Part shown: piece by piece, positions 9,899-38,851 of the stretch
Position numbering within the stretch: position 1 is the stretch's first letter
How the letters are laid out: each line of letters opens with the position of its first letter
Source of the DNA: an uncultured bacterium
GTDB taxonomy: Bacteria > Omnitrophota > Omnitrophia > Omnitrophales > Abzuiibacteriaceae
Assembly: GCA_964387845.1 (NCBI GenBank)
Contig: CAYLXA010000006.1
Span: 1 to 64,000, forward strand
Direction of reading: 5' to 3'
DNA length: 64,000 bases
Notes under the pieces: model-generated
Database searches by the model: none
Seen by the model: the letters and a program-made list of their open reading frames with translations, nothing else
What the model was told of the DNA's origin: nothing
Made by a program: the position numbers and the translations under genes

Positions 9899-9905
9899 TT
9901 CCTTT

Positions 9906-21150: not shown

Positions 21151-23034
21151 ATGACCAAAAAAGGAATTCTCATATGTAACGACGCGGTCCTTATCGCCTT
21201 TGCCTATTATCTGTCCTATTTTCTTAGGCTTGACTGCAGTTATCCGGCCCAGTACATCGATTTCATTTATAAAACACTTCCCATTATCGTTTCTATCAAA
21301 ATTATCACCTTTTTCTTTGTCGGAATGTATAAACCGGTTTGGCGCTATGCCAGTATCAGTGCGGTTTTGCTGACGATATCGGCCGTTCTTCTGTCTTCAC
21401 TTGTGGCTGTCTTTGCTCTTTATATTGCCGATTTAAGAGCGCCCCGGTCTATTCTAATTCTGGACCTCATCCTAACGTTTATGCTCGTTGGCTTGTCGCG
21501 GCTTATGGTCAGGCTATTCAAAGACTACGCGGTCAAGCTGTCAAAAACCAGAAATGAGGCCAAAGATCAAGCGCAGAAAAGAATTTTGATATATGGTGCG
21601 GGGGATGCGGGGGAGCTTGTGCTGCGAGAACTGAAGTCGAATCAACGCACTTGGCATGTCGAAGTTGTTGGCTTTATTGATGACAATAAGAGCAAAGGAT
21701 CTCGCATTCACAATGTTCCTATTTTAGGCAATATCGATGACTGTGACCATATTGTTGATCGTTATCATGTAGAAGAGCTGATTGTTGCGATATCATCGCT
21801 TCCCGGCGAGAAAATGCGTCATTTGGTTGAACGATGCGGACGGCTCGGCGTCCGGTTCAAGGCGATCCCTAGAATCGGAGATATTGTTGATGGAAAAATT
21901 AAAATGAGCCAATTGCGCGACATTGAAATCGGCGATCTTCTAAAGCGTGATCCTAAAAATTTAGATTGGGATTTGATTAAAAAATTCATTAAAAACAAGC
22001 GGGTTTTTGTTTCGGGCGCGGGCGGGTCTATCGGAAGTGAGTTGTGTCTTCAAATTGCGGAATGCAGTCCTGCAAAATTAATCCTGGTAGAGAATTCCGA
22101 ATTTAATCTTTATTCAATCCAAACCAAGTTATCGGATCGTTGGCCAAAACTTCAAATCTCGAGTTATCTTACCAGCGTTACGGATCAAGCCAAAATCGAC
22201 AACGTTATTTCCGAGTCCCGGCCTGAAATCATTTTTCACGCCGCTGCGTACAAACATGTCCCGATTTGTGAAGAGAATATTTGTGTTTCTGTGTTAAACA
22301 ATGTGGGCGGCACTATTAATCTTGCCCGCTCTGCGGATCGGCATGGTGTCGGCCAGTTTGTTTTCATATCGACGGATAAGGCGGTTAATCCCAAAAGCAT
22401 TATGGGGCAAACTAAAAAGCTCGGTGAATTATTTGCCTACAATCTGGACCGCAGAAGCAAAACCAGCTTTATGATTGTCAGGTTTGGAAATGTGCTCAAA
22501 AGTTCCGGCAGTGTTTTAACCCGCTTCCGGGAGCAGGTTCTAAAAGGCGGGCCCGTAACAGTAACGCACCCCGATGCAACGCGGTACTTTATGCTGATTG
22601 ACGAAGCCGTCAAATTGATTTTACAAGCCGCATCTATTGGTAAGGGCGGTGAAACTTTCGTGCTGGATATGGGCTCTCCGGTTAAAGTGGTCGATATGGC
22701 GCGGGAACTGATTACAACCATGGGATTTCGGCCCGACAAGGATATTAAAATAGAATTTACGGCGCTCCGGCCCGGCGAAAAAATTCATGAAGAATTGTTC
22801 GAAGATATTCATCTCATGGACTCAATTCATGAAAGTATTTTTATGAGTAAGAACGATGTCCTGGATTGGGAAGAATTAAATGCTTCGCTAGAACAATTAC
22901 TGCTTCATGCGAGCCGTCATCAGCCTGAATTAGCACAAAAAAGCCTTGAGCGTATTTGTCAATTGCCCGCATTGACTGCGCGCCAAAATAATACATCTTC
23001 TGTTCTAGCTAGAAACATTAATGCGCGTCTCTAA
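21151..23034 (+). CDS. membrane-anchored UDP-HexNAc 4,6-dehydratase (CapD/WbpM/PglF family)
   Basis: N-terminal TM helices and two Rossmann motifs: 'ILIYGAGDAGE' and 'VFVSGAGGSIGSEL'; ~630 aa. Confidence 0.85.
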   Translation: MTKKGILICNDAVLIAFAYYLSYFLRLDCSYPAQYIDFIYKTLPIIVSIKIITFFFVGMYKPVWRYASISAVLLTISAVLLSSLVAVFALYIADLRAPRSILILDLILTFMLVGLSRLMVRLFKDYAVKLSKTRNEAKDQAQKRILIYGAGDAGELVLRELKSNQRTWHVEVVGFIDDNKSKGSRIHNVPILGNIDDCDHIVDRYHVEELIVAISSLPGEKMRHLVERCGRLGVRFKAIPRIGDIVDGKIKMSQLRDIEIGDLLKRDPKNLDWDLIKKFIKNKRVFVSGAGGSIGSELCLQIAECSPAKLILVENSEFNLYSIQTKLSDRWPKLQISSYLTSVTDQAKIDNVISESRPEIIFHAAAYKHVPICEENICVSVLNNVGGTINLARSADRHGVGQFVFISTDKAVNPKSIMGQTKKLGELFAYNLDRRSKTSFMIVRFGNVLKSSGSVLTRFREQVLKGGPVTVTHPDATRYFMLIDEAVKLILQAASIGKGGETFVLDMGSPVKVVDMARELITTMGFRPDKDIKIEFTALRPGEKIHEELFEDIHLMDSIHESIFMSKNDVLDWEELNASLEQLLLHASRHQPELAQKSLERICQLPALTARQNNTSSVLARNINARL

Positions 23035-23043
23035 GTTATCGCA

Positions 23044-25575: not shown

Positions 25576-26173
25576 AACAATTTTTGATTTTACGTTGTCT
25601 CTTTTGGCTTTAGTCGTACTATCGCCGCTTTTGCTGATTGTGTCAGCGGCTATTAAATTTGACTCAGAAGGGCCTGTCTTGTTTGTTCAAGATAGGGTCG
25701 GCCTGAACGGAAAGATTTTTAAAATTTATAAATTTAGATCCATGCTCAATAACGCACAAGATGGTTTCGGCCCCTCTGGCCGCGTGTTGACCCAAGCTGA
25801 TAACCGTATTACTAAGCTCGGAAAGTTTTTAAGGGGTTCCAGTATTGATGAAATACCGCAGTTGTGGAATGTGGTCAGGGGAGAAATGGCATTAATTGGA
25901 CCGCGGCCCGTACTTCCGGTCCAAGCAGAGCAATTCTCGGATTTTCAAAGAGAGCGCCTTCGGGTGAAGCCCGGCTTAACGGGTCTTGTGGCTGTGCGCG
26001 GCGGTTATGAGCTTTCGTGGCCGCAGCGAATCCGTTTGGATGTTTGGTATGTACGGCATCAATCTTTTGCGCTGGATTGTTACATATTTTTTAAAACAAT
26101 CGAACTGTTGATTGCCGGCCGTTCGATTTATAATTCGCAGGGAGTAAGTGAAGATTTCAAGCCCGCGAAATAA
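25556..26173 (+). CDS. small monotopic initiating phosphoglycosyltransferase (bacterial sugar transferase family, PglC/WbaP-C-terminal-like)
   Basis: ATG at 25556 (the extension from 25463 lies within the upstream CDS). Has 'RIFDF' + TM + 'GPVLF.QDRVG..GK.F...KFRSM' and 'PGLTG' motifs. Confidence 0.75.
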   Translation: MSWQAVKTIFDFTLSLLALVVLSPLLLIVSAAIKFDSEGPVLFVQDRVGLNGKIFKIYKFRSMLNNAQDGFGPSGRVLTQADNRITKLGKFLRGSSIDEIPQLWNVVRGEMALIGPRPVLPVQAEQFSDFQRERLRVKPGLTGLVAVRGGYELSWPQRIRLDVWYVRHQSFALDCYIFFKTIELLIAGRSIYNSQGVSEDFKPAK

Positions 26174-26186
26174 ATTGTGAGTTGCT

Positions 26187-27311
26187 ATGAAAAAAATTCC
26201 GTTGTCTTCGCCCGACATTACAGACCAAGAGATTGACGCCGTCGTTCGTGTTTTACGCACGTCAAGATTAAGTTTGGGGCCAGAGCTTCCTGCTTTTGAA
26301 AAGGAATTTGCAGAGTATATCGGCACTCGGTTTGCGGTTACGGTCTCAAGCGGAACCGCAGGCCTGCATTGTGTCATGAAGGCGCTCAATATCGGAGATG
26401 GTGACGAGGTAATCACAACACCGTTTAGTTTTATTGCTTCTGCGAATTGCATTTGGTTCGAACGGGCCAAGCCTGTATTTGTTGATATTGACAAGAGCAC
26501 GATGTGTATTGATGCGTCCAAAATCGAATCCGCCATTACACCGAAAACAAAAGCGATTTTGCCGGTGCATTTAATCGGCGAGTGTTGCGCTATGGATCAA
26601 ATTCAAGACATTGCGCGAAGGCACAAATTATCGATCATTGAAGATGCCTGCGAAGCTCTTGGAACCACATGGAACGGTAAAAGAGTCGGAAGTTTTGGAG
26701 ATGCTTCTGTTTTTGCTTTTTATCCGAACAAACAAATGACAACCGGAGAAGGAGGTATGATTGTAACCAACAACAGTCAAATTGCCGAAGTTTGCCGCAG
26801 CTTGCGTAATCAAGGGCGCTCGCCGGGCGACGGTTTTGTTTTTGACAGGCTTGGTTACAATTATCGGCTAAGTGATATTCAGTGCGCTTTAGGACGAATC
26901 CAGCTGCAGCGCCTTGGAAGCATGATTGAAATGAGGAGACAGGTAGCTGATTGGTATGCCGAGGAGTTGGGCGGTACACCGGATATTATTCTCCCGGAAA
27001 GTATTCACCGCTCTGAAATCTCTTGGTTTATTTTTTTGATTCGGTTGAATGCAGATTATGCTGCCGATGACCGAAATGAGATCCGAAGGCTATTGTCCGA
27101 GCAAGGCGTTGAAACAGCGGCTTATTTTCCCAATATTCATCTCCAAAGTTTTTATAAAAAAGAATTTAGTTATAAGGCCGGCGATTTTCCTGTTTGCGAA
27201 AGCACATCACAGCGGACCATTGCGCTGCCATTTTATAATCGATTAAGCAGGGAAGAAGTGCGCTATGTTGCAGATAATCTGAAGGCCGCACTTCAAAAAG
27301 TATCAATTTAA
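26187..27311 (+). CDS. DegT/DnrJ/EryC1 PLP-dependent sugar aminotransferase (PglE/WecE-like)
   Basis: 'AVTVSSGTAGLH', a PLP-Lys region 'FYPNKQMTTGEGG', and 'GYNYRLSDIQCALG'. Confidence 0.85.
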   Translation: MKKIPLSSPDITDQEIDAVVRVLRTSRLSLGPELPAFEKEFAEYIGTRFAVTVSSGTAGLHCVMKALNIGDGDEVITTPFSFIASANCIWFERAKPVFVDIDKSTMCIDASKIESAITPKTKAILPVHLIGECCAMDQIQDIARRHKLSIIEDACEALGTTWNGKRVGSFGDASVFAFYPNKQMTTGEGGMIVTNNSQIAEVCRSLRNQGRSPGDGFVFDRLGYNYRLSDIQCALGRIQLQRLGSMIEMRRQVADWYAEELGGTPDIILPESIHRSEISWFIFLIRLNADYAADDRNEIRRLLSEQGVETAAYFPNIHLQSFYKKEFSYKAGDFPVCESTSQRTIALPFYNRLSREEVRYVADNLKAALQKVSI

Positions 27312-27334
27312 TATTTAACCGAGAAAAGCGCACC

Positions 27335-28000
27335 ATGCTAAATAGCCAGAGCAATTTTGATTCTATCAATTTCCGCGATTTTCTTTCCTTAATTAAAAAG
27401 CGAAAGCATATTTTTATTGTAACGTTTGTTCTTTTATTCTCGTCCTTATATTGGTGGAAAACCGCATATTTTCCGACTTTTCGGCTTCAACAGGGAATTT
27501 TAATGCGGGACGGCTCCGGCCAAATCGTTGAACCTGATTATTTATTCAATTTGAGAAAGCATTTTTTTCAAAGCGATTGGATAGTAGCTAAAATTAATTC
27601 TAGAATTCCCGATTCAACCTTAGACCATAAAACTTTACAAAAACGGTTATTGACCAAGGTGATCCCTTTCGCCGGGCCGTCTCCCAAGCATCATCAATTG
27701 GAGCGTGGGTATATTCTAGCTCTTATTGTCGATTCGGATTCTGCCGACCTTGGAAAACTTGTTTTAAGCCACTGGATTGCTGTTCTTAAAGAAGAGTTAT
27801 TGAGAATTGATGATGAAGTCGGTTTAGATTTTAAGTTCAGTGTTGCAACCGAGCCTGTATTGATTAGAAGTCGATTTACAGAGAAGCTGGAAGCAACCGG
27901 TGTTTCGTTTGCATTAGCTTTTTTGCTTTCGATATTCACAGTCGTGAGTTTCGAAATTTTTGCCAAACATAGCGGACGATCTCAAAATTTGAATTCCTAG
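27335..28000 (+). CDS. short Wzz-like (polysaccharide co-polymerase N-terminal domain) membrane protein
   Basis: 'INFRDFLSLIKKRKHIFIVTFVLLF' resembles the Wzz N-terminal motif/TM; second TM at the C-terminus; lacks the long periplasmic coiled coil. Confidence 0.35.
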   Translation: MLNSQSNFDSINFRDFLSLIKKRKHIFIVTFVLLFSSLYWWKTAYFPTFRLQQGILMRDGSGQIVEPDYLFNLRKHFFQSDWIVAKINSRIPDSTLDHKTLQKRLLTKVIPFAGPSPKHHQLERGYILALIVDSDSADLGKLVLSHWIAVLKEELLRIDDEVGLDFKFSVATEPVLIRSRFTEKLEATGVSFALAFLLSIFTVVSFEIFAKHSGRSQNLNS

Positions 28001-28013
28001 CGCCCCTGCGGTT

Positions 28014-29429
28014 ATGGATATGATTTTTGGAATTATTATAATTATTTGTATTTATGCAGCGTGGATTTTCTTGACAGTAAAGTCATTCAATCACCCCCGC
28101 ATTTTATTTTTAACCTCAGTTATTCTTGTTTCATTTGTAAACTTTTCTTTTTCTGATAATGAACTTTTCAGTCGTTTTGCTATCCCCGACGTTCTTTTTG
28201 TAACGCTCTTTGGGATTTATTTATTACGCGTTGCTCTGCTCCAAAGAGAAGAAATAGTTTTGCCTAAGAGCGCCTGCTTTGTCTTATTAATTTTTATTAC
28301 CGCTATTTTCCTTTCTTTTCTAAGCGCAATTCCAGATTCTGATATGATTTTTGGCGGAGGAGAATTTCTGATCATTTTGCAAGGCATTCTTGTTTTTGTT
28401 ATGGGAGTTCATTATGTTAAAACTGAACAAGAATTTATATCGTTTCTTAAAATGTGGATGATTTCCGTGATTTTGACATCAATTGTCTGTTTTATCGATA
28501 TGGGTGATATGATTTTTGCTCCTCCCGTTATCGAGAAGCTTCCATTTGCACATAGCGGATTTTTCGGGATTTTTGACCTTCTGTCCAAACAGACTTTCAT
28601 TCATGATTTCTTGTCTCCGTGGCCTTCTAGAATTATGGGCCCGTTTCGTTCGAATGGCCAGTTGGGCAGTTATTCATTAACATCATTCTTTGTAATGCTG
28701 GCCTATCTGTATGCGCCGGGTCAAACAGCCAAAACAAAAAAAGTAATTATCTTCCTTGCTTGGTGTCTCGGAATTTTTACTTTTCTGTCTATGGCGCTGA
28801 GGTTTTTGCCTAGTTTTGCTTTAGGGCTTGGGTTGTACGCTGTTTTCACTTTCAGGAAGTCTAAAAGACAAGGTTTTATTTTGTTGTGCTTGATAGCCGC
28901 GGCCGTGCTGCTGATTGTATCGATCGCTGCTTTTAATCCGCAGCTAGTTCCAAAATGGGCTCGCGATCTTAACATCACCAACACGCAGGTGGGAACAATG
29001 GGGAGCAAGCCGCTTCGTGCATGGGCTTTGTCATCCGTGCAAGAAGCATTTCTAAATCATCCATTGTTTGGCGTTGGGTTTGGCCGTTTTATCCAATCAG
29101 ATTATATTAATTTGACGCGCGGCTTTGAAATTCATAGCACACCGCTTCAATTTCTTGCCGAAACTGGAGCGGTAGGATTTCTTGCGTACTTATTTATGAT
29201 GGCGTATTTTGGTTATCTTGCTTTTCGTAACATTGTCTTGTCTCGTTTGAATGAATGGAAGGATTTTTTTATGGTACTCGCGTTTGGAATTTTATCGCTT
29301 CCAATCAGTTACTTATATAACCGACATCTCAAAGAACGAACCTTTTGGTTTTTGTTAATCTTAATTTATGCCGGATATCGATTTTTAAATGAAAGGCGCC
29401 TGCTTCAAGGCAAAAAAATCCAGACGTGA
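28014..29429 (+). CDS. Wzy_C/O-antigen-ligase-family polytopic membrane protein (polymerase or ligase)
   Basis: ≥10 TM helices; 'EIHSTPLQFLAETGAVGFLAY' Wzy_C loop motif. Paralogue of the 42748..44124 CDS, sharing a C-terminal 'YLYNRHL(K/R)ERTFW' block. Confidence 0.5.
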   Translation: MDMIFGIIIIICIYAAWIFLTVKSFNHPRILFLTSVILVSFVNFSFSDNELFSRFAIPDVLFVTLFGIYLLRVALLQREEIVLPKSACFVLLIFITAIFLSFLSAIPDSDMIFGGGEFLIILQGILVFVMGVHYVKTEQEFISFLKMWMISVILTSIVCFIDMGDMIFAPPVIEKLPFAHSGFFGIFDLLSKQTFIHDFLSPWPSRIMGPFRSNGQLGSYSLTSFFVMLAYLYAPGQTAKTKKVIIFLAWCLGIFTFLSMALRFLPSFALGLGLYAVFTFRKSKRQGFILLCLIAAAVLLIVSIAAFNPQLVPKWARDLNITNTQVGTMGSKPLRAWALSSVQEAFLNHPLFGVGFGRFIQSDYINLTRGFEIHSTPLQFLAETGAVGFLAYLFMMAYFGYLAFRNIVLSRLNEWKDFFMVLAFGILSLPISYLYNRHLKERTFWFLLILIYAGYRFLNERRLLQGKKIQT

Positions 29430-30571
29430 AACTGTTTTCTCAAGCGTCAATGTTGGCTGATCGCTGTATCATGTTTGTGGCGGTGAAAGGATTTGCTCTT
29501 AGCAACTCAAGACTCCCTTTGATGAAGTTCTTTATTAAGCAGGGGTGGAGAGTAGTTGCGGCAACTTCCGAAGACGATCATATCAACCATTTAAAGAACG
29601 AAGGCGTCATTGTTGAACCGATTTCATTTCGAAGAGGCGGTTTTCATCCATTTTCAGATTTCCGTGCACTAATTCAATTAATCAAAGTTTATCATCGCTA
29701 TCGACCGGCTCTGATCCAGCATTTCAATGGTAAGCCGATTGTTTTAGGAAATTTTGCCGCGCTTTGTCTGAAAAAAGTACTGATTGTGAATACGGTCACA
29801 GGCCTTGGGCATGCGTTTCTGGAGATGAATTTTTCATTCCGGCTGTTTGCATGGATTTATCAATTATTTTGCAGCCGCGCGGCTGCAACTATTTTCCAGA
29901 ACGAAAGCGACTATGAAGTTTTTGTTAAAAACGGTTGGGTCAATTCAAAAAGAGCGCATGTGATTGTCAGTTCGGGAATTGATTTTGAAAGATTTATAGG
30001 TGATCCTAAAAAAAGAACCGAAACGCCCACTATTTTACTGGCAGCTCGGCTTGTCTGGATGAAAGGCATCTCTGAATTTGTGGATGCTGCCCGGGAAATT
30101 AAATCCCGATTTCCGGCTGCACGCTTTTTTTTAGCTGGCGCGCCGGATTTAATTCATCCCGATTCGATTCCCATGGACTGGGTGCGTGAACGGACCCGGG
30201 AAGGCGTGATTGAGTATTTGGGCTATGTTGAACATCCCGAGAAACTATTGCAAACCGTTTGGGTTTGCGTATTGCCGTCTTACCGGGAAGGTGTTTCAAG
30301 AATTTTACTTGAAGCAGCGGCTTGCGAAGTGCCGATCGTGGCAACCGATGTCCCGGGCTGCAGGGAAACCGTCCAAGATGGAAAAACGGGAATATTGGTA
30401 CCTCCGCGCGATCGGCAGGCTTTGGTGCAAGCAATTACAAAATTACTGCAAAACCCCAAAGAAGCTCAGAAAATGGGCGAGCAAGGAAGGCGATTTGTTC
30501 GTGACAAATTTGATGTTCACCAGATCATGCAAAAATATATTCAAATTTATCAATTGATCGGTTTGAACTGA
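29426..30571 (+). CDS. GT4-family glycosyltransferase
   Basis: 'SYREGVSRILLEAAACEVPIVATDVPGCRETVQDGKTGILV' (E-x7-E motif). Start could be a downstream ATG (29450). Confidence 0.75.
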   Translation: MKLFSQASMLADRCIMFVAVKGFALSNSRLPLMKFFIKQGWRVVAATSEDDHINHLKNEGVIVEPISFRRGGFHPFSDFRALIQLIKVYHRYRPALIQHFNGKPIVLGNFAALCLKKVLIVNTVTGLGHAFLEMNFSFRLFAWIYQLFCSRAAATIFQNESDYEVFVKNGWVNSKRAHVIVSSGIDFERFIGDPKKRTETPTILLAARLVWMKGISEFVDAAREIKSRFPAARFFLAGAPDLIHPDSIPMDWVRERTREGVIEYLGYVEHPEKLLQTVWVCVLPSYREGVSRILLEAAACEVPIVATDVPGCRETVQDGKTGILVPPRDRQALVQAITKLLQNPKEAQKMGEQGRRFVRDKFDVHQIMQKYIQIYQLIGLN

Positions 30572-31434
30572 TGTCCGTACTTGATAAGCCCGTTTTTATT
30601 GTCGGAGCACCCAGATGCGGCAAAAAAATGACAGCAGAAGTTCTTGCCAGGGACTCGTCTGTGTATGCTTTTCAGTATGAAATGAATTTTTTGTGGCGTT
30701 ATGGTCACGCAGCGTTTCCGCACGATCGGCTGACTCCCCAAATGTTGTCCAATGATATCAAGACCTACATCCAAGATCAATTTACAGGGGTGCTAGGCAA
30801 GCATGGTAAACTGCGCATTGTGGACCGGACAGATCATAATGTGGTTCGCCTTGATTATGTCAACGCTGTTTTCCCGGACAGTTTTTTCATTTTTGTCGTG
30901 CGGGACCCGCGAGCTGCAGTTGCTTCCGCTATCCGGCGCCGGCAAGAGAAAGTTGGCTTCGTTCCTTATCTCAAGAAGTCGTTAACGGTTCCGACGCGGG
31001 ATTTGATATATTATGGCTTTCGGTATTTGAGTGACATTGCGCAAGCGCGGCTCAGAAAAAACGGCTATAAGAATTTGTGGGGCATTCGAACGCCGCAAAC
31101 TCTATCTTTAAGTCCCGAAAGCTCATTGGCCGAGAAATGCGCAGTACAGTGGAAGGAATGTGTACTGGCAGGCCTGCAATTTTCAAAAACATTTCCGCCG
31201 GAACGGTTTCTGATCGCTCGGTATGAGAAGTTAACCAGAGATCCGGTTGGTGAATTTAAGCGGATATTTGATTTTGCCGCTCTGTCTTGGAATTCTGAAA
31301 TTGCAAAGTGGGTGACCGAGAATGTTCATACTAATAGTATGGATAAATGGAAACAGCAGTTAAGCGATGACGATTTGCTGCAAGTACAATTACACACAAA
31401 AGATCTGGCGCAACGATTAAGTTACTCATTTTAA
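30571..31434 (+). CDS. sulfotransferase-family protein (Sulfotransfer_3-like)
   Basis: P-loop-like 5'-PSB 'GAPRCGKKMT' near the N-terminus and a 3'-PB-like 'VVRDPRAAVAS'. Confidence 0.55.
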   Translation: MSVLDKPVFIVGAPRCGKKMTAEVLARDSSVYAFQYEMNFLWRYGHAAFPHDRLTPQMLSNDIKTYIQDQFTGVLGKHGKLRIVDRTDHNVVRLDYVNAVFPDSFFIFVVRDPRAAVASAIRRRQEKVGFVPYLKKSLTVPTRDLIYYGFRYLSDIAQARLRKNGYKNLWGIRTPQTLSLSPESSLAEKCAVQWKECVLAGLQFSKTFPPERFLIARYEKLTRDPVGEFKRIFDFAALSWNSEIAKWVTENVHTNSMDKWKQQLSDDDLLQVQLHTKDLAQRLSYSF

Positions 31435-31444
31435 CTTCAATTTT

Positions 31445-32110
31445 ATGAATAAAGATTGGACCCACGAATTTCATGCAAGGTTTCATCCAAAAGGATTGAG
31501 TCTTGGTGAGCGGTTTTTTAAGAGAGCATTTGACATTACGGTGGCAATACTTGGTTTATGTTTAACGTGGTGGGTTATTGTGATTGCATTTATTTTGGCT
31601 TGGCTTGATACCAGGCAATCGGGTTTTTTTGTTCAAAATCGCGTGGGATATCGTGGAAAATTATTCAAACTTCTAAAAATAAGGTCAATGCGGGATAATC
31701 CTGCCATTAAAACAACCGTAACAACCGCTAATGATCCACGTATTACAAAGTTAGGCAAGTTCTTCAGAAAGACCAAAATTGACGAACTGCCGCAACTTTT
31801 TAATGTTCTGTGGGGAGATATGACCTTGGTGGGCCCGAGGCCTGATGTTATGGGGTTTGCAGATCGTTTAGAAGGAGATGATCGAATCATTCTCTCCATT
31901 CGTCCCGGGATTATTGGTCCGGGCACGCTCAAATATTTGTATGAAGAAGAAGAGTTGGCCCGACAGTCGAATCCGGAACAGTATAATCGCGAAGTTATTT
32001 TTCCGGATAAAGTCAGGCTGAATCGCGCATATATTGAAAACTATTCTTTCTGGAACGATCTCAAATATATTTATAAAACCTTGCAACGCATTAAATACCA
32101 TCAACAATAA
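31445..32110 (+). CDS. second small initiating phosphoglycosyltransferase (bacterial sugar transferase family)
   Basis: 'RAFDI' + TM + 'GFFVQNRVGYRGKLFKLLKIRSM', 'ELPQLFNVLWGDMTLVGPRP' motifs; paralogous to the 25556..26173 CDS. Confidence 0.75.
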   Translation: MNKDWTHEFHARFHPKGLSLGERFFKRAFDITVAILGLCLTWWVIVIAFILAWLDTRQSGFFVQNRVGYRGKLFKLLKIRSMRDNPAIKTTVTTANDPRITKLGKFFRKTKIDELPQLFNVLWGDMTLVGPRPDVMGFADRLEGDDRIILSIRPGIIGPGTLKYLYEEEELARQSNPEQYNREVIFPDKVRLNRAYIENYSFWNDLKYIYKTLQRIKYHQQ

Positions 32111-32128
32111 TTCTCAAAAAGGATCCGT

Positions 32129-33106
32129 ATGGGTATTTCAGGTTTAAAGAAGGTTGATATTATTGCGACAGTGGGCCCAAGGTCGTTGTCTAAGCAAGTT
32201 ATTTGTGACATGATTGATGCGGGCGCCTCTATCTTGCGGATCAACGGATCGCATGAGAATTTGGAAAGCATTCGAGTTTGTGCTAGCCAGCTACGCAAAT
32301 GGATGGGCAAGCGCGCTAAAATCTTAGTAGATATTCCGGGCAATAAGATCAGGACCATGCATTTGGGCGACCCTATTATTTTGAAACCCGGAAAAGAAAT
32401 TCAGCTTTTCAAGCATCAGGTTAATTTCCCCGGTTTTTTTAAATTGCTCAGAAAGGGTGACACCATTCTGGCGAATGACGGCTTGGTCAGGTTCAAGGTG
32501 CAAAAACCATCCGGCGAGGCAATTGTATTTAAATCAGAAACGGAAGGAAAGCTTGAGAATAATAAAGGATTCCACGTATCACGAAAACTTTCCTTACCGT
32601 TTTTGTTTGAAAAGGATATCCAGATTTTTAAATTAGCCAAACAAATTGGAATCGATTTTGTCGGTCTTTCATTTGTACGCTCGGCGGACGATGTTCGAGA
32701 GGCAAGGCAATATTTCAAGAATAGTAAAACCAAGCTTTTGGTCAAGGTCGAAACCCGGGGTGCGGTTGACCGGCTTGAAGAAATATTGGCGGAATCCGAT
32801 CAAATTTTGATTGACCGGGGCGATCTTGCGGCTGAAATTGGTTTTGAAAATGTTTCATGTGTTCAAACTAAAGTAATCAGCGCTGCCAAGAAGAGAAAAG
32901 TCCGCGTTGCATTGGCAACGCAGTTTCTGCACAGTATGGTTGATCGCGATGTTCCTTTGATTGCTGAGGTGGATTCGCTTTATTACGCAATCCGATCAGG
33001 GATTGATGCCGTTCAAGTATCGGAAGAAACTTCGATTGGCCGGTTTCCCGAAAAAGTAATTCGAGTTTTAACTACCATGATTCAGCAAAGCAAGAGAAAA
33101 GTTTAG
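32129..33106 (+). CDS. pyruvate-kinase-like barrel-domain protein lacking the C-terminal regulatory domain
   Basis: 'KIIATVGPRS', 'RINGSHE' (cf. NFSHG), 'ILVDIPGNKIRT', 'VKVETRGAV', 'IDRGDLAAEIG' all align to PK catalytic motifs. Only 325 aa against ~470 for canonical PK. Confidence 0.55.
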   Translation: MGISGLKKVDIIATVGPRSLSKQVICDMIDAGASILRINGSHENLESIRVCASQLRKWMGKRAKILVDIPGNKIRTMHLGDPIILKPGKEIQLFKHQVNFPGFFKLLRKGDTILANDGLVRFKVQKPSGEAIVFKSETEGKLENNKGFHVSRKLSLPFLFEKDIQIFKLAKQIGIDFVGLSFVRSADDVREARQYFKNSKTKLLVKVETRGAVDRLEEILAESDQILIDRGDLAAEIGFENVSCVQTKVISAAKKRKVRVALATQFLHSMVDRDVPLIAEVDSLYYAIRSGIDAVQVSEETSIGRFPEKVIRVLTTMIQQSKRKV

Positions 33107-33108
33107 GC

Positions 33109-34053
33109 ATGATTGCTCGCTATTTCAAGAAGGCGCTGGAATATAGCCGGCTAATTCCTATTTGGGAAGAATTTTTATGGCAGAAATCCTACATGGAAGC
33201 CTCTGCGTCGTCGCGGCTATCGGATTTGCGTTCTTTGTGTTTTATGGTTGGACCCAACCGCAATTTGGCCTCTCTCGTAGCGTTGCTTATTTACTTACAT
33301 AAGAACGGGGAAGCCGTGAACCATGCGGGTAGCCGTATTTTTCCTAAAAAAGAAATTGATATTTGGCATCAATGTTCCGAGAACCGTTTTGATTTATTTT
33401 GCCGCTATCTTGAATTTCTTTCGAGCCGCGGAATGCGAGGGCAGACAGGGGGATCTATTCGCTACTCAAATGCTGTGGCAGATCACCCTGAAGCCAAGCA
33501 GCTTGTGCTCAATCGATTTCCGGATTTAAACCGCCGGTCGCCTGTCCATGCGTTGGTGTGGAAAGAGCCTTTAATGATTTACAAGTTTCTGGCTAGCGAT
33601 GGAATGAAGACTGTAGAGTTGTTAAAGTGCTATCAAAAAATTAAGTTGCTTTTGCCGGTTAGAAATCCTCTGGATTGCGCCATTTCAAATAAGAATTTAG
33701 GAGAACGTTGGCTTAAGCGGGCCTATGGCCTTACCGATTTTAGTCTCGAGTCGGTTCTAGAAGCTTTATTTAAGATATATCATTCATTTTTTACATGGAG
33801 TAAAACGTACCCGGGTCGGTGCATGGCGCTGTTTGAGAACGAATGCTCTGAAAATACGCTGAGCCAACTGGCGCAATTTCTCTCCCTAGAGCATGATCCT
33901 GCATGGATTGTGGATTGTTTGCAGGTTTGGAAAGTCAATCAGCACTATCGGTGGGAAAAGTCATGGCTGGAATACTATAAAATTTTGTGCGATCGTTATT
34001 TCTCAGATGTTCCCGAGATTAAAAATCGGTTTTTATTAATGGTAGGATCTTGA
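33109..34053 (+). CDS. hypothetical protein, possibly divergent sulfotransferase (RNPLD 3'-PB-like motif)
   Basis: 'LLLPVRNPLDCAISNK' resembles the sulfotransferase 3'-phosphate-binding motif (RNPKD/RDPRD). No clear 5'-PSB loop was found. Confidence 0.3.
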   Translation: MIARYFKKALEYSRLIPIWEEFLWQKSYMEASASSRLSDLRSLCFMVGPNRNLASLVALLIYLHKNGEAVNHAGSRIFPKKEIDIWHQCSENRFDLFCRYLEFLSSRGMRGQTGGSIRYSNAVADHPEAKQLVLNRFPDLNRRSPVHALVWKEPLMIYKFLASDGMKTVELLKCYQKIKLLLPVRNPLDCAISNKNLGERWLKRAYGLTDFSLESVLEALFKIYHSFFTWSKTYPGRCMALFENECSENTLSQLAQFLSLEHDPAWIVDCLQVWKVNQHYRWEKSWLEYYKILCDRYFSDVPEIKNRFLLMVGS

Positions 34054-34072
34054 AAATCAGGAGTATGGGCTT

Positions 34073-34969
34073 ATGCTAGAATTAAAATCTACCGCTTCAT
34101 ATGTTGAGACGATCCGGAGCAGACGCGCGGGCCTTAAGTTCAATTTTATCCGATCGGCGCTTTCGAAATTCTATAACCAACTATGCCTAAGATTCGAAAA
34201 TCAGTTTTTCATTTCGTTTCCAAAATGCGGGCGGACATGGTTGCGCTTCTTTCTTGCGAAATACATCGCAGATAAGTACCAAGTTCCTTTCATGCTGGAT
34301 CATTCGGTTGTCATGCGCGCCCTGAGCTTTGGAACCGGATTTAACTTTGCGCCTCATTTTCATTTTACACATTCAGGTTTTGATGTTCCCGATAAGAATC
34401 AATTTAATAAAATAGCAAAAGCGTTTCGAGGTAAAAAAATCCATTTTCTCATCCGGGATCCAAGAGATGTGGTTATTTCGTACTATTGGCACTATCAAAA
34501 AAGACAGAAGCGATTGAATAAGGATGTTCCACGCGATACGCCGCTTTCGGTTTTTCTGCGTCATCCGGAGGTCGGAATTTCTCAAATCATTGAATTCATG
34601 AACCGTTGGTATGATCAGAGAGGAGACTTTAGTCAATTTTCAATTTGGTGTTACCAGGATTTTAAAAAAGATTCCGGTTTGTTATTTAAAAAGCTTTTGG
34701 AAGGCGTTGGAGAAGGGAAGATTGATCAAGAAGTTTTTGAAAATGCGCTGCAATATTCTAACTTCGATAACATGCGGGCAATGGAATTGAATCAAAAAAT
34801 TAAAGATCCTATGTTGCGCACGCTTGATACGGGCGATCCTGAGGCATTCAAAGTGAGGCGGGGTGTTATCGGGGGATATCGTGACTACTTTTCAAAAGAA
34901 GATCTTGTATTTGCCAATTCGGAAATGGCCAAACTGAATACTAATTTTGGTTACTCGGTTGATCGATAG
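34073..34969 (+). CDS. sulfotransferase (Sulfotransfer_1-like; PAPS-dependent)
   Basis: 5'-PSB 'FPKCGRTWL' (cf. PKSGTTW) and 3'-PB 'FLIRDPRDVVISYYWHY'. Confidence 0.7.
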   Translation: MLELKSTASYVETIRSRRAGLKFNFIRSALSKFYNQLCLRFENQFFISFPKCGRTWLRFFLAKYIADKYQVPFMLDHSVVMRALSFGTGFNFAPHFHFTHSGFDVPDKNQFNKIAKAFRGKKIHFLIRDPRDVVISYYWHYQKRQKRLNKDVPRDTPLSVFLRHPEVGISQIIEFMNRWYDQRGDFSQFSIWCYQDFKKDSGLLFKKLLEGVGEGKIDQEVFENALQYSNFDNMRAMELNQKIKDPMLRTLDTGDPEAFKVRRGVIGGYRDYFSKEDLVFANSEMAKLNTNFGYSVDR

Positions 34970-34981
34970 CGAATCGAACTT

Positions 34982-35860
34982 ATGGCTTTTCATTGTTTCT
35001 CGGTCGACGTAGAGGGGTTTTGCGAGTCAAACTCCGAGTCGTTCACCGTCCCATCTGGATTAATCGCCAATCGATCGGAGTTAGACGAAATTCAGGCAAA
35101 TATTGAAACGACACTTCAGCTGCTCTCACAATTTCATGTGAAAGCAACTTTTTTTTGTTTGGGTCATTTGGCTTCTCAACGGCCGGAAATTATTAGGGCC
35201 ATAGCAAATGAGAAACATGAAATCGGTTCGCACGGTTATTGGCACAAACGGTTGTTCAATTTAAAGTCGGCGGATCTTGCGGAGTCAATTATCCGATCCA
35301 AAGAAGAACTCGAACAAGTATCCGGCCAAAAAGTTCTCGGTTTCAGGGCGCCCGATTTTTCAATTCAAGCAAGTAATATAAAAGTGTTAGATCTTATTCA
35401 AAAAGCTGGTTACTTGTATGATTCCTCAATTTATCCAATTTCCATGCACGATGTTTACGGTATTCCGGGGGCCAGAAGAGACCTTCATCAATTGGCCAAT
35501 GGAATGATCGAGTTTCCGCCGTCCTCTATCCGTTTCTTAGGTGTGTCCTTTCCGGTTCTTGGAGGCGGATATTTTCGTTTGGCGCCCTTGTGGGTTTCGC
35601 GCTTGGCACTGAAACATTTTACGAGGGCCGGAATGCCTGCGATGATGTATCTCCATCCATACGAAATAGGAGACCGATTTCCCCAAGTTTCCAACCTGTC
35701 TCCTTACCGGAAGTTTCGTCATTATATCAATCTATCAAAAGGAAAGCGCAGACTTCAGTCCATTTTTAAAGAACACAAATTTTATCCGGCAGCAGAATTC
35801 GTTAGTTCCTTCCAAACAGCAAATTCAACACTAAAAGGCAATGTCGATACTTCAAATTAA
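34982..35860 (+). CDS. polysaccharide deacetylase family protein of the PEP-CTERM/exosortase-locus type (NodB-like + DUF3473)
   Basis: 'FSVDVEGF', 'HEIGSHGYWH' NodB motifs; the C-terminal 'GGGYFRL.P' block is typical of the XrtA-locus deacetylase subfamily. Confidence 0.6.
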   Translation: MAFHCFSVDVEGFCESNSESFTVPSGLIANRSELDEIQANIETTLQLLSQFHVKATFFCLGHLASQRPEIIRAIANEKHEIGSHGYWHKRLFNLKSADLAESIIRSKEELEQVSGQKVLGFRAPDFSIQASNIKVLDLIQKAGYLYDSSIYPISMHDVYGIPGARRDLHQLANGMIEFPPSSIRFLGVSFPVLGGGYFRLAPLWVSRLALKHFTRAGMPAMMYLHPYEIGDRFPQVSNLSPYRKFRHYINLSKGKRRLQSIFKEHKFYPAAEFVSSFQTANSTLKGNVDTSN

Positions 35861-35926
35861 GTGGGGCGGTTTACGGGATAAAGAGCGCGCCACTGATAAA
35901 CCCGGCAATGCATTGCGGTGAAAACC

Positions 35927-36556
35927 ATGAAATACGGTTTACGTTCAGCTATTGCACATCTTCAAATCGAGGGGCTTGGGGCTTTCTTGCTTCGTGCTTT
36001 TCAGATTTTTCTTCGATTATTTTATTATGATATGAAAGCCGAGCTTTTATCGCTTGATTTTAAGCAGCCCTTTTCATTCTCGCATGGTAAAACCTCGCTC
36101 CAAATAGACAAATTGGCTGACGGCGATATCAAGGCTTTGTCTAAAATTACGATGTATGATGAATCGGAAATTCAGAGGAGGCTTCACCGGGGTCAATTTT
36201 GCATGATCGCAAAAGTTGACGGCAATATTGTGCATTACTCATGGGTAACCCGTGAAGTTCAGCAGGCTGACGAAATAGAATCGACACTTCAATTCCAACC
36301 CGGTTGTTTCTATATCTACAACTGCAGAACCCTAAAAAAATTTCGCGGGCTTGGAATTTTTCCGAGCGTGCTTGGTCAAATCATTCATGAAACAAAAGCG
36401 AGGGGAGCATCCAAGGCTTATGCGTTAGTCACGTCTATGAATCATGCCTCAAAGCGCTCATTTTCTAAACTTCATTTTCTGCCTGAGCGAGAATTTAGAG
36501 TAACGCGGATTTTATTCTGGTATTTTGGAAAGCATCAAAACTTATACAGGATTTAA
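35927..36556 (+). CDS. GNAT-fold acyltransferase-like protein
   Basis: 'CRTLKKFRGLGIFPSVLGQII' resembles the GNAT motif A (R/Q-x-x-G-x-G/A). GTG at 35918 is an alternative start. Confidence 0.35.
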   Translation: MKYGLRSAIAHLQIEGLGAFLLRAFQIFLRLFYYDMKAELLSLDFKQPFSFSHGKTSLQIDKLADGDIKALSKITMYDESEIQRRLHRGQFCMIAKVDGNIVHYSWVTREVQQADEIESTLQFQPGCFYIYNCRTLKKFRGLGIFPSVLGQIIHETKARGASKAYALVTSMNHASKRSFSKLHFLPEREFRVTRILFWYFGKHQNLYRI

Positions 36557-37592
36557 ATTTTTGATTACGATCAAAATTTATCAAAAAAATCTACCGGACA
36601 GCTGGGATCAATTGGTTGATGATTGCGCCGGCAGTTGGTATTTTAAATCGAGATGGAAGCGCGTCCTGGACGCTGTTTACAATCACCCAAGTTATTATTT
36701 AGCAGCGGAAGAAACCGGCAAGCTGGTCGGTATCTTGCCCTTGATGTTGGGCGGGAATCTTTTATTCGGGCGTTTTTTGGTTTCTCTTCCTTATTCCTGT
36801 TACGGCGATATTTGCACAAAAGATGCCAATGCGCGAAGTGCTCTTTTGCAAAAAGCGAAGGAAATCGCTCGGTCGCACGGTGTGGAATATTTACAAATTC
36901 GGTCTCAGCATCCGGTTGGCGACCGAGATTTCGTGACCATTTCTGATAAAGCTACTTTTCAATCCGCACTTAATTCCAGTCCTGATTTGTGGTGGGAACG
37001 CCTTTCTGATGATGCTAAACGAGATGTCCGGAAAGCTTTATCGGCCGGCTGTGAAGTCAGAATAGGCGGAAAAGAGTATCTCGATGATTTTTATCACGTT
37101 TTTTGCCGCAGAATGCAGGAATTGGGCTCGCCGGTATATGGGAAAAATCTTTTTCATAAAGTAATCGATATTTTTCAGGATGATGCCAAGATTGTTTTGG
37201 TTTCAAAAGGGGAAAAACCTATTGGCGCCGGTTTTTTGATGATTGATCGGCAAAATATAGAAATACCTTGGTCTGCGTCTTTGGCTTCGGAATTTAAACA
37301 TAAGCCAAACCATTTGATATATTGGAAAGCGGTTCAGTATGGCTTTGAGCGCCGTTGCCGCATGATTGACTTCGGAACTTCTAATCAGGATTCGCCAAAT
37401 GCCGCATTCAAATTGCAGTGGTGCGCACAAAAAATCCCATTGGCATGGTCTTATTACCCTGTCAGGCAGAAAAGGCTTAGTCTCTTAAGTCCCAAAAATC
37501 CTAAATTCAAACTTGCGATTGAGCTTTGGAAAAAACTACCTCCGCCGGTTGCTGATTTCATAGGGCCAAAACTAATTCGCGGCATTCCATAA
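36525..37592 (+). CDS. FemAB-family (GNAT-fold) protein of the type associated with PEP-CTERM EPS loci
   Basis: ~350 aa; FemAB/acetyltransf_6-like pattern. Overlaps the upstream ORF, so the true start may be downstream. Confidence 0.5.
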   Translation: MESIKTYTGFKFLITIKIYQKNLPDSWDQLVDDCAGSWYFKSRWKRVLDAVYNHPSYYLAAEETGKLVGILPLMLGGNLLFGRFLVSLPYSCYGDICTKDANARSALLQKAKEIARSHGVEYLQIRSQHPVGDRDFVTISDKATFQSALNSSPDLWWERLSDDAKRDVRKALSAGCEVRIGGKEYLDDFYHVFCRRMQELGSPVYGKNLFHKVIDIFQDDAKIVLVSKGEKPIGAGFLMIDRQNIEIPWSASLASEFKHKPNHLIYWKAVQYGFERRCRMIDFGTSNQDSPNAAFKLQWCAQKIPLAWSYYPVRQKRLSLLSPKNPKFKLAIELWKKLPPPVADFIGPKLIRGIP

Positions 37593-38851
37593 TGATATCC
37601 AAATGCTGGACTAGTTTGTTAGTGTTCCTGTTTATTCTTGTGTTGTGGGTTATTTACCACATCTGGGGAACGGCCATTTTTCTGCATGCTTGTGAAGGGC
37701 AGTTTGGGTCTTTTTTGAATCAACTATTCTCAGCGCGAATCTCTGAGGTGACGCCTGAATACTGTTCGGATCGAGCCGGCCAATTTGTGTCGTACTTCTT
37801 AACAGCTATTTTATTTACTTCGGGCTTTATCGCTGTTTATATCCATGTCATTGAATATTTAAATTCTGTCAAACGGTCATGGTTTGGAAATTGCGTGATA
37901 ATTTTATTGACGATTTTTTTAATTTTCTCGGGAAGTGAGTTGGGTGTACGTTTGTATCAACTTCTCAAAGACGAGGTGCCTTTTTCAAAAAATTTGAATG
38001 ATTTTTACGACCCCATATTGGGATGGAGGGGAGAGGGGCGATTTGGTAATTTGCGCACCGATCGTCCGAAAGTGTTTTTTATAGGTGATTCGTTCACAGA
38101 AGCCAAGAAGGTTTCTGAAAGTGCAAAGTTCTTTAATGTAATCCGCGATGAATTAAAAATCGAACCCTTTGTTTACGGTAGAACCAGTTACGGCACTTTG
38201 CAGGAATATCTGATTTTAGATCGCTACATGGATTTAATTGAGCCGGATTTAATTGTTTTGCAGATATGCTCAAACGATTTTATTAATAATTCATACGAGC
38301 TTGAAAAGCTGAGTTTTTTTAACAACAAAAGAATTCAAAGGCCTTATTGGATTAACGGACAAATCGAACTCCGTTTTCCGAGAGATCATGAATGGCTGCA
38401 TGCAGTTAAGTTTAAATTGTCCAGCTACTCGCGCCTATTCCACTTTATTTTAATCGGCTTTGATTATCTTTCAATCCGCCTCTGGCAGTTGAGTGGTGCT
38501 GAGAGCGTAGAGATGCGTATTAAGCGCGAAGGTGTTCATTTTGACTTATTTCGCGAATCGGTCGAAATAACGGATCATATCGTGGGGCTCATGCAGGAAC
38601 GGGTATCCGGCGTACCCATAGTCGTAATTCCAACCGACCGCAGCGAGCCATATTTGGGAGAGTTCCGGAAAATCTTTCAGAAATACAAAATTCGATTTCT
38701 TGAAGAAGCTTCGATTGAACTAGAGCATAAAAAAGCGAGCGGGGTTTTGGTTACGTTTAAAGACGGCGTGCATTGGAATGATCAAGGGCATCGCATTGCC
38801 GGACAAGTTATCTCGGCAGCGTTGCAGAATATTGTTCGGCGCAGGAGTTAG
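37592..38851 (+). CDS. membrane-anchored SGNH/GDSL-family hydrolase/acyltransferase
   Basis: N-terminal TMs; 'FFIGDSFTEA' (block I GDS), 'DGVHWNDQGH' (block V DxxH). Confidence 0.55.
   Translation: MISKCWTSLLVFLFILVLWVIYHIWGTAIFLHACEGQFGSFLNQLFSARISEVTPEYCSDRAGQFVSYFLTAILFTSGFIAVYIHVIEYLNSVKRSWFGNCVIILLTIFLIFSGSELGVRLYQLLKDEVPFSKNLNDFYDPILGWRGEGRFGNLRTDRPKVFFIGDSFTEAKKVSESAKFFNVIRDELKIEPFVYGRTSYGTLQEYLILDRYMDLIEPDLIVLQICSNDFINNSYELEKLSFFNNKRIQRPYWINGQIELRFPRDHEWLHAVKFKLSSYSRLFHFILIGFDYLSIRLWQLSGAESVEMRIKREGVHFDLFRESVEITDHIVGLMQERVSGVPIVVIPTDRSEPYLGEFRKIFQKYKIRFLEEASIELEHKKASGVLVTFKDGVHWNDQGHRIAGQVISAALQNIVRRRS

Follow-up and report, generated by a model that had tools for sequence, protein, structure and literature searches.

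A gene for a pyruvate kinase (PK) barrel that lacks the usual allosteric domain lies in the middle of a glycan-biosynthesis operon on contig CAYLXA010000006.1 (assembly GCA_964387845.1) of an uncultured Omnitrophales bacterium. The stretch analysed here, hereafter the window, is 64 kb long (positions 1 to 64,000 of the contig). The PK gene (32129-33106) encodes a protein of 325 amino acids (aa) and is embedded between sulfotransferase genes, as a preliminary description of the locus had observed. The best-supported reading of the family to which this protein belongs is a link to sulfation by way of 3'-phosphoadenosine 5'-phosphosulfate (PAPS), which that description did not draw. The surrounding string of co-directional genes (Table 1) codes for a PglF-like dehydratase, a fusion of Wzy_C to a family 4 glycosyltransferase (GT4), a Bac_transf protein, a DegT aminotransferase, a Wzy_C protein, a GT4 protein, the block made of sulfotransferases and PK, an XrtA-type deacetylase, GNAT/FemAB-like proteins and a GDSL-like protein. 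The gene upstream of PK ends with a stop codon at 32108-32110, and the stop codon of PK itself (TAG, 33104-33106) is followed 2 nt later by the ATG of the next gene.

All four sequence motifs by which the PK barrel was originally recognised are present in the open reading frame (ORF), namely RINGSHE (residues 37-43), DIPGNKIRT (68-76), VKVETRGAV (205-213) and IDRGDLAAEIG (228-238). The match to the PK barrel domain (PF00224; 201 bits, E = 3.4e-59, Pfam cut-off 30) spans profile positions 2-327 of 328, and the Pfam scan gave no match of the 325-aa protein to the C-terminal domain PK_C (PF02887), so that the description of a stand-alone catalytic barrel without its allosteric domain holds. Among the proteins with solved structures, the closest relative is Escherichia coli PykF, with 32-33% identity over PykF residues 1-337 (E = 7e-46); as PykF is 470 residues long, the window protein falls short of a normal PK by about 130 residues at the C-terminus. 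In the NCBIfam PK models, whose profiles have ~470 positions, residues 6-323 are likewise matched by the first ~337. Scores fall below the curated cut-offs of all these models (260.6 bits against 306.4 for TIGR01064, 271.3 against 432 for NF004491), a shortfall that is expected for a protein without a third of the model.

The AlphaFold2 (AF2) model of the protein, built from a 43-sequence alignment, has pLDDT of 93.7 and pTM of 0.90, and predicts an eight-stranded barrel with an all-β insertion at residues ~77-150, the B-domain lid. Foldseek matches of this model are pyruvate kinases exclusively, PykF, PykA and PKM among them. The TM-scores to PK A+B domains are 0.85-0.92 when normalised by the query and only ~0.6 when normalised by the target, as is expected where the target carries an extra domain. 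There is also a signal for the HpcH/HpaI aldolase/citrate lyase β family (PF03328), confined to residues 170-261 and scoring 22.4 bits against a threshold of 25, which is an echo of the common phosphoenolpyruvate (PEP)/pyruvate-barrel superfamily and not a sign of membership.

The absence of the C-domain is native. We searched the whole window by tblastn with the PK_C domains of eight full-length relatives and found no remnant of this domain, the best match (E = 0.66) lying away from the gene. The junction between the PK stop codon and the next ATG is tight; P0002, a 79%-identical homologue in the same syntenic context, is also 325 aa long; and the lengths of the 120 best database matches fall into two groups, 301-350 aa (93 matches) and 494-514 aa (27 matches), with PK_C in none. 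A frameshift or sequencing artefact, which the preliminary description had named as the circumstance that might restore a full-length PK, is ruled out by the missing PK_C coding sequence, the conserved length, and the nature of the downstream ORF, an unrelated protein of apparent sulfotransferase fold.

The PK active site is intact in sequence. Alignment to PykF places PK catalytic or ligand residues at R37, N39, H42, D68, K73, R75, K146, K206, E208, G231/D232, T264, S298 and E300, and, across 43 family members, little or no variation is seen at R37, N39, H42, D68, R75, K/R146, K206, E208, G231-D232, T264, S298 and E300. Their PKM2 equivalents are Arg73, Asn75, His78, Asp113, Arg120, Lys207, Lys270, Glu272, Gly295/Asp296, Thr328, Ser362 and Glu364, the residues which, in well-studied PKs such as PKM2 and rabbit PK, bind PEP, Mg2+ and the nucleotide phosphates. 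The monovalent-cation site (Ser77, Thr114, Glu118) is not kept: Lys73, invariant in the family and aligned with rabbit-muscle Glu117, replaces the Glu (position 118), position 114 is Ile or Leu, and position 77, which is Ser in the window protein, is Ala in 30 of the 43 members. Of the ligands that the preliminary description had proposed to compare with PK structures, the catalytic Lys, Arg and Glu and those of Mg2+ are thus retained, and those of K+ are replaced. Lys in place of the K+-site Glu is a known signature of K+-independent PKs, and the altered site, as judged from the alignment, does not exclude PK activity.

Several family-invariant residues depart from those of textbook PKs, namely G40 (Phe in the latter), P70 (Lys), K73 (Glu), D229 (Ala), Q296 (Met) and E299 (Gly). 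The IDRGDL motif and Lys at position 117 are found also in two full-length PKs, P0170 and P0185, the nearest neighbours of canonical length, and therefore mark a K+-independent parent PK clade and not a new chemistry. On the same ground, we rejected the idea that family-specific residues such as D229 and K73 make up a new active site.

The barrel-only clade has a recognisable signature: a length of ~315-345 aa, a C-domain that is either absent or swapped for adenosine 5'-phosphosulfate (APS) kinase, a nucleotidyltransferase (NTase) or ATP sulfurylase, and the motifs D-[LI]-P-G-N-K-[IV]-R, I-D-R-G-D-L and Q-x-S-E-E-T, which in the window protein read DIPGNKIR, IDRGDL and QVSEET. Apart from the syntenic P0002, other clade members are 38-53% identical to the window protein. 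In a profile search of 1.84 billion representative sequences, the first ~57 clusters, all above ~285 bits, contain proteins of 315-345, ~500 or ~575 aa, and canonical ~470-aa PKs start at ~282 bits, the scores being continuous, with no gap. A single neighbor-joining (NJ) distance tree of 255 barrels, midpoint-rooted and without bootstrap or other support values, groups the window protein with a few other short forms, in a subclade whose sister clade contains many APS kinase fusions. The enclosing clade of 165-168 members includes 128 short forms, 37 proteins of APS-kinase-fusion length, three of NTase-fusion length and none of canonical length, and all 69 PKs of canonical length fall outside of it. 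A scan of 185,579 species genomes detected 155 relatives, and 80 loci were kept. Represented among these loci are Campylobacterota, Planctomycetota, Omnitrophota, Bdellovibrionota, Myxococcota, Nitrospinota, Lachnospiraceae/Oscillospiraceae, Elusimicrobia and some archaea. In the public records they are called 'pyruvate kinase' or 'hypothetical protein', and the fusions 'adenylyl-sulfate kinase'; no NCBIfam model specific to the barrel-only family was found.

Gene context was tallied with custom hidden Markov models (HMMs) in a set of 86 non-redundant loci, which span more than 10 phyla; the counts of sulfotransferases are lower bounds. ATP sulfurylase (Sat) is encoded within 3.5 kb and on the same strand in 73 of the 86 loci, the gaps being mostly -13 to +19 bp, and APS kinase (CysC), separate or fused, in 47. 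Other neighbours are a Na_H_Exchanger-like transporter (27 loci), sulfotransferase (at least 15), a CysQ-like protein (9), TauE (7) and CDP-OH_P_transf, a CDP-alcohol phosphotransferase (6). The gene order is APS kinase - TauE - ATP sulfurylase - PK barrel in Malaciobacter halophilus, APS kinase - ATP sulfurylase - PK barrel in Nitrospina, and ATP sulfurylase - PK::APS kinase - sulfotransferase in a metagenome-assembled genome (MAG) of Oligoflexia; in Thalassomonas viridans, a nonribosomal peptide synthetase cluster harbours a sulfotransferase gene and, further along, TauE - APS kinase - ATP sulfurylase - PK barrel - CysQ-like. In the subclade of the window protein, all four independent loci (window/L002, L004/L094, L091 and L096) have a sulfotransferase gene within 2 kb. 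The synteny of the window is repeated at L002/L003; at L004/L094 the sulfotransferase is 1.9 kb upstream of the PK barrel; the operon at L091 includes a gene for APS kinase, and its PK stop codon is overlapped by a Sulfotransfer_3 gene; and at L096 the PK stop codon is overlapped by the gene for a 678-aa protein with a C-terminal sulfotransferase domain.

The module is also found in a well-studied pathogen. In Campylobacter jejuni GB55 (L039:6621-15567; also L072, L075, L037 and L051), the order is DUF2972 - APS kinase - ATP sulfurylase - PK barrel - Na_H_Exchanger, directly abutting kpsC/kpsS. In strain ICDCCJ07001, the genes of the module have been listed, uncommented, as specific to the HS:41 capsule, with PK given as 'Pyruvate kinase, barrel domain (CPS)' (PMC2993937). 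The housekeeping Pyk of C. jejuni is Cj0392c (PMC4178425), and the barrel-only gene is therefore a second paralogue in this species. Taken at face value, the gene content of the module implies a sulfated or PAPS-analogue-modified capsule in a serotype associated with Guillain-Barre syndrome; in the literature we found no report of such a capsule for the HS:41-type serotype, and the paper on the sulfation cluster of C. jejuni HS:19 deals with a different, CysDN-type module without PK.

The fourth gene of the Sat/CysC/PK module codes more often for a Na_H_Exchanger membrane protein (CPA-type, ~400-440 aa; L039:10985-12238, L072:10982-12235, L070:8707-9975) than for anything else, and in other such modules its slot is taken by TauE. 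The Na_H_Exchanger protein may be the sulfate importer of the module, a role not usually given to that family.

Gene fusions provide Rosetta-stone links between PK chemistry and sulfate activation. Those 27 of the 120 best matches that are ~500 aa long are fusions of the PK barrel to APS kinase (PF01583), in which the kinase begins ~10 residues past the point where the window protein ends. Two proteins from the representative library join PK to ATP sulfurylase: P0175 (725 aa) consists of PUA_2, ATP-sulfurylase and a barrel-only PK, and in P0185 (859 aa) a full-length PK, with barrel and PK_C, is fused to PUA_2 and ATP-sulfurylase. As P0185 shows, the link between PK and sulfurylase exists also outside of the short clade, and its domain composition argues that sulfate activation recruits ordinary PK chemistry. 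Another protein from this library, P0144 (1051 aa), has an adenylate kinase domain behind two canonical-type PK barrels, which makes a cascade from AMP through ADP to ATP in one chain; it is possibly eukaryotic. With its canonical motifs, P0144 falls outside of the short clade, and we set it aside as support.

A third type of fusion, ~580 aa long, connects the PK barrel to a LicC-like cytidylyltransferase in ~15 planctomycetal loci (L068:9959-13731, L049, L058, L060, L062, L065, L066, L069, L071, L076, L080, L085 and L086 among the LicC-like loci) and in one Methanoperedens MAG (L053). The LicC-like domain (NTP_transf_3) has CTP:phosphocholine cytidylyltransferase (1JYK) and a PntC-type enzyme (6PD1) as its best PDB relatives. 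In Planctomycetota, the fusion gene is followed by ATP sulfurylase, which in Methanoperedens is found upstream. A CDP-alcohol phosphotransferase comes next at L068 (detected by Pfam) and at L049, L065 and L086 (by custom HMM), and at L068 a PAP2-domain membrane protein is encoded divergently upstream; no APS kinase was found within 10 kb of these fusions. The product of such operons may be a CDP-activated or sulfated head group.

On the strength of these contexts and fusions, we propose, with a probability of roughly 0.55, that the barrel-only protein is a K+-independent PEP:ADP phosphotransferase, which regenerates ATP from ADP for the synthesis of PAPS and frees APS kinase from its dead-end enzyme-ADP-APS (E-ADP-APS) complex. 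The window protein would convert PEP and ADP to pyruvate and ATP without K+ and without allosteric control, the loss of the C-domain having removed the effector control together with the C-C tetramer interface. Recruited as an accessory enzyme of sulfate activation beside Sat and CysC, the barrel would turn the ADP released by APS kinase back into ATP at the cost of PEP, for a net reaction of sulfate + ATP + PEP -> PAPS + PPi + pyruvate. Such PEP-driven return of ATP would pull the unfavourable sulfurylase step forward and supply ATP to both Sat and CysC, which would be useful to Sat-type sulfurylases that lack the CysDN GTPase; the kinetic benefit would lie in the removal of ADP, by which the E-ADP-APS complex would be averted. 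In the window, the gene would have moved away from sat and cysC into a glycan operon, where it would sustain PAPS for the sulfation of polysaccharide. In the fusions, the dimeric APS kinase takes the position of the C-domain, hinting at direct association between the two enzymes. Two published observations are in line with this scheme: APS kinase does form a dead-end E-ADP-APS complex (PMC3734648), and, in an in-vitro cascade, PAPS was 'practically missing' when no PK/PEP system for ATP regeneration was added (PMC9885120).

Several points weigh against this proposal. The activity and the substrate of the family are what we infer from alignments and gene context, and the window itself, searched by tblastn and custom HMMs, has neither sat nor cysC nor a second PK, so that the local link consists of the three flanking genes of sulfotransferase fold and of homology. 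The tightest partner in the family, Sat, releases PPi and not ADP, and in 27 of the 86 loci Sat is present although APS kinase is not encoded within 3.5 kb. The LicC-like fusions of Planctomycetota and Methanoperedens stand beside Sat and CDP-alcohol phosphotransferase, APS kinase being absent from the surrounding 10 kb, and a Binatia glycan cluster (L092) that lacks sulfation genes has the order PK barrel - CDP-OH_P_transf; these contexts would fit a broader supply of nucleoside triphosphates (NTPs), or some other chemistry, at least as well. Finally, bulk PK and the cellular ATP pool might make a dedicated recycler unnecessary, and its selective advantage is a conjecture.

A bolder form of the proposal, which we offer tentatively and would not bet on, is that the barrel is an obligate, docked third subunit of PAPS synthase, in which contacts with Sat and CysC replace the C-domain interface and PEP provides the drive, beside the GTP-driven CysDN; in some lineages, such as the Planctomycetota with the LicC-like fusion, the module might serve an undescribed pathway to a sulfated or CDP-activated head group, or use an acceptor other than ADP, such as 3'-phosphoadenosine 5'-phosphate (PAP), and close a PAPS salvage cycle. 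The docked subunit is suggested by the natural fusions of PK with Sat and CysC.

The same genes could be read as a general NTP-regenerating module, in which a PK of the nucleoside diphosphate (NDP) kinase type uses PEP to convert ADP, CDP, GDP or UDP to NTP for whichever nucleotidyltransferase or kinase is attached to it; in the window, it would then support the use of nucleotide sugars and PAPS by the glycan pathway generally, and not sulfation specifically. Canonical PKs accept several NDPs, Sat and cytidylyltransferase alike consume NTP and release PPi, and the NTP_transf_3 fusions with their Sat and CDP-OH_P_transf neighbours, as well as the Binatia locus without sulfation genes, would be accommodated easily. 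Yet Sat adjoins the fusion in all planctomycetal cases examined, leaving sulfate activation as the common denominator; Sat is far more frequent than CDP-OH_P_transf in the family (73 loci and 6, respectively); and among the fusions we saw none to a sugar-1-phosphate nucleotidyltransferase of the classical nucleotide-sugar pathways. We consider this explanation unlikely.

Slightly less probable still is a changed acceptor within sulfonucleotide metabolism, in which PEP would phosphorylate a 3'-phosphorylated nucleotide (returning PAP to PAPS), a species related to AMP or APS, or a small hydroxy acid or anion that is later cytidylylated. The side reactions of PK include phosphorylation of glycolate, fluoride and hydroxylamine, and sulfuryl transfer from sulfoenolpyruvate; the six invariant departures from textbook PKs listed above might reflect a changed acceptor, genes for CysQ-like PAP phosphatases are often adjacent (in the nine loci mentioned), and the combination of cytidylyltransferase with CDP-alcohol phosphotransferase would suit a kinase that makes an X-phosphate. 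The retention of all ligands of PEP, Mg2+ and the nucleotide phosphates speaks for the ordinary reaction, however, as do the occurrence of several of the 'special' residues (Lys117, IDRGDL) in full-length P0170 and P0185 and the fusion of a full-length PK to Sat.

The preliminary description had suggested that the barrel supplies PEP, for NeuB-type nonulosonate synthesis or for pyruvylation of the glycan, or else phosphorylates a sugar, and neither suggestion fared well. A NeuB-family synthase and a NeuC-like UDP-GlcNAc 2-epimerase are indeed encoded in the window, on the minus strand, and NeuB lies within 10 kb of PK at the two closest out-group loci, L004 and L091. But the PK reaction is strongly exergonic towards pyruvate and ATP and consumes PEP, hence the enzyme would compete with NeuB and not feed it; the NeuB gene of the window is 15 kb away from PK, in another operon; and in the family NeuB is found within 10 kb on either side in only 12 of the 86 loci, adjacent to PK in none, with no fusion of the barrel to NeuB-pathway enzymes found. 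As for pyruvylation, pyruvyl transferases use PEP and not pyruvate, and none of the window ORFs scanned with Pfam matched the pyruvyl-transferase family (PF04230). All of these roles agree poorly with the fusions to APS kinase and ATP sulfurylase and with the prevalence of Sat among the neighbours. Management of PEP or pyruvate for the glycan, or a sugar kinase role, is thus very improbable.

That the gene simply encodes the PK of glycolysis, is a truncated pseudogene or arose by misassembly, for which one might cite the several public records that name the family simply 'pyruvate kinase', can be dismissed for practical purposes, as the preliminary description had anticipated with regard to glycolysis: the length is the same in 93 of the best 120 matches, the architecture is common to many phyla, no PK_C remnant is present, the gene is tightly coupled into its operon, it scores below all curated PK cut-offs, its clade excludes PKs of canonical length, and C. 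jejuni has a separate Pyk.

Comparison with known systems helps to delineate what is new. Like the canonical bacterial PK (E. coli PykF, PDB 1PKY/4YNG; PF00224 and PF02887; TIGR01064), the window protein combines a (β/α)8 A-domain with an inserted β-barrel B-domain lid, and conserves the ligands of PEP, Mg2+ and nucleotide phosphates together with the catalytic Lys and Thr. It differs in having no C-terminal α/β domain, hence no effector site and no C-C tetramer interface, in a B-domain that is ~10-15 residues shorter, in Lys73 at the place of the K+-site Glu, and, at the level of the family, in Ala or Ser at the equivalent of Ser77 and in a context of sulfate activation and sulfotransferases instead of glycolysis. 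The K+-independent 'Lys117' PKs, reportedly described by Laughlin and Reed and by Oria-Hernandez et al., likewise carry Lys where the rabbit-muscle enzyme has Glu117, in the motif D-L-P-G-x-K-I-R, but they keep the C-domain and work in central metabolism, whereas the barrel family has lost the C-domain or replaced it by APS kinase, cytidylyltransferase or ATP sulfurylase. The 352-aa Bacillus-type short PK (NF005234/PRK06739) resembles the window protein in its barrel-only length; with 160.6 bits against a cut-off of 564, the window protein is not a member of that family, and the two are separate lineages.

PAPS synthases and other fusions of sulfate activation (Sat-CysC, CysNC, metazoan PAPSS1/2) also have consecutive enzymes of the pathway fused or clustered. 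In the reviews and other literature searched, we found none described with PK, and the described systems are driven by hydrolysis of GTP (CysN) or of PPi, in contrast to the PEP that we propose here. The proposed chemistry, with ADP removal relieving E-ADP-APS and with regeneration of ATP, is closest to the in-vitro PAPS cascades with PK and PEP (PMC9885120), but those are engineered mixtures with commercial muscle PK, and here the coupling would be natural and genetically encoded.

The remaining features of the window are collected in Table 1. The ORF that starts 2 nt past the PK stop codon has no Pfam or NCBIfam match and just five homologues among 5.8e9 proteins, and BLASTP and hhalign related it to sulfotransferases only at the level of motifs. 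The AF2 model of the protein (pLDDT 82.9) has PAPS-dependent sulfotransferases as all of its top 50 Foldseek matches in the PDB, TPST2, CurM ST, Stf9 and SULTs included, with the best E = 4.8e-6 and TM of only ~0.4. By alignment, its VRNPLDCAIS segment corresponds to the 3'-phosphate-binding motif in the sulfotransferase encoded next to it, and GPxRN and RNPLDxxxS are at the places expected of the 5'-phosphosulfate-binding (5'-PSB) and 3'-phosphate-binding (3'-PB) motifs, respectively. The protein probably represents a new, very divergent sulfotransferase family.

Table 1. Positions of genes and other features in the 64-kb window
Feature	Coordinates	Strand	Evidence or comment
Co-directional glycan-biosynthesis gene string	21151-38851	+	ORF map, Pfam, NCBIfam, synteny in L002/L003
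Sulfotransferase (Sulfotransfer_3/Sulfotransfer_1), presumed PAPS consumer	30571-31434	+	PF13469/PF00685, E = 2.9e-20 and 3e-9
Polyprenyl-phosphate sugar phosphotransferase (Bac_transf), directly upstream of PK, same operon	31445-32110	+	PF02397, E = 3.4e-51; TIGR03025, 190 bits
Shine-Dalgarno-like AAAGGA, 5 nt 5' of PK ATG	32118-32123	+	Sequence inspection
Barrel-only PK gene, A+B domains, 325 aa, ATG start	32129-33106	+	ORF, PF00224, PykF alignment, AF2/Foldseek
Orphan 314-aa protein, predicted divergent sulfotransferase fold, start 2 nt past PK stop	33109-34053	+	AF2/Foldseek
Sulfotransferase (Sulfotransfer_1), presumed PAPS consumer	34073-34969	+	PF00685, E = 1.1e-13
XrtA/PEP-CTERM-type deacetylase	34982-35860		TIGR03006, 242 bits, under the 276-bit cut-off
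Bac_transf/Wzy_C-type ORFs	23044-25575, 25463-26173, 28014-29429, 31445-32110, 42748-44124		
249-aa ORF downstream of the NeuB/NeuC pair	47332-48081	-	
NeuB-family synthase	48024-48992	-	
NeuC-like UDP-GlcNAc 2-epimerase	48998-50167	-	
Menaquinone genes	6470-10601	+	Partly futalosine-type
ORF, 296 aa	2222-3112		No Pfam match
ORF, 324 aa	16241-17215		No Pfam match
ORF, 221 aa	27335-28000		No Pfam or NCBIfam match
ORF, 409 aa	44128-45357		No Pfam match

Judging by the NeuB and NeuC-like genes, the locus probably also makes a nonulosonic acid. Two initiating phosphoglycosyltransferases of the Bac_transf type are encoded in the glycan region along with three proteins of Wzy_C type, and one of the latter is fused to a GT4 glycosyltransferase (843 aa); this duplicate set of genes suggests that two or more polysaccharide pathways have been merged. 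The menaquinone run upstream of the glycan region includes MqnA-like VitK2_biosynth, MqnC-like radical SAM, UbiA, UbiX-like flavoprotein and UbiE genes, and has G+C content of ~0.50, versus 0.42 in the glycan region, so that the glycan island may be of different origin from the menaquinone region; the run also offers a clue to the lineage. Of the four ORFs without a Pfam match, three are in the glycan region and one is near the start of the window.

The fold of the barrel-only PK is known and its chemistry probably is known too, and what had gone unrecognised is a conserved role and architecture. We found no functional description of PK in PAPS modules in the literature searched, which was largely that outside of subscription journals, so that a description may exist elsewhere. 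Sulfation of capsules, exopolysaccharides and natural products by bacteria depends on PAPS. If the proposed role is true, PK becomes the third component of the textbook two-enzyme PAPS pathway, and the drive of Sat-type sulfurylases that work without the CysN GTPase is explained. The production of sulfated glycosaminoglycans, whether in microbes or in vitro, is known to be limited by the supply of PAPS, and PK and PEP for regeneration of ATP have been added by hand (PMC9885120); the PK::CysC and Sat::PK proteins would be compact natural fusion enzymes for this purpose. The gene would also flag the capacity for sulfation in genomes where the annotation shows a stray 'pyruvate kinase', for example in C. 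jejuni with the HS:41-type capsule locus, which has been linked to outbreaks of Guillain-Barre syndrome, and in many gut Lachnospiraceae and Oscillospiraceae. The family as a whole would offer a natural test of how a PK barrel behaves without its allosteric domain.

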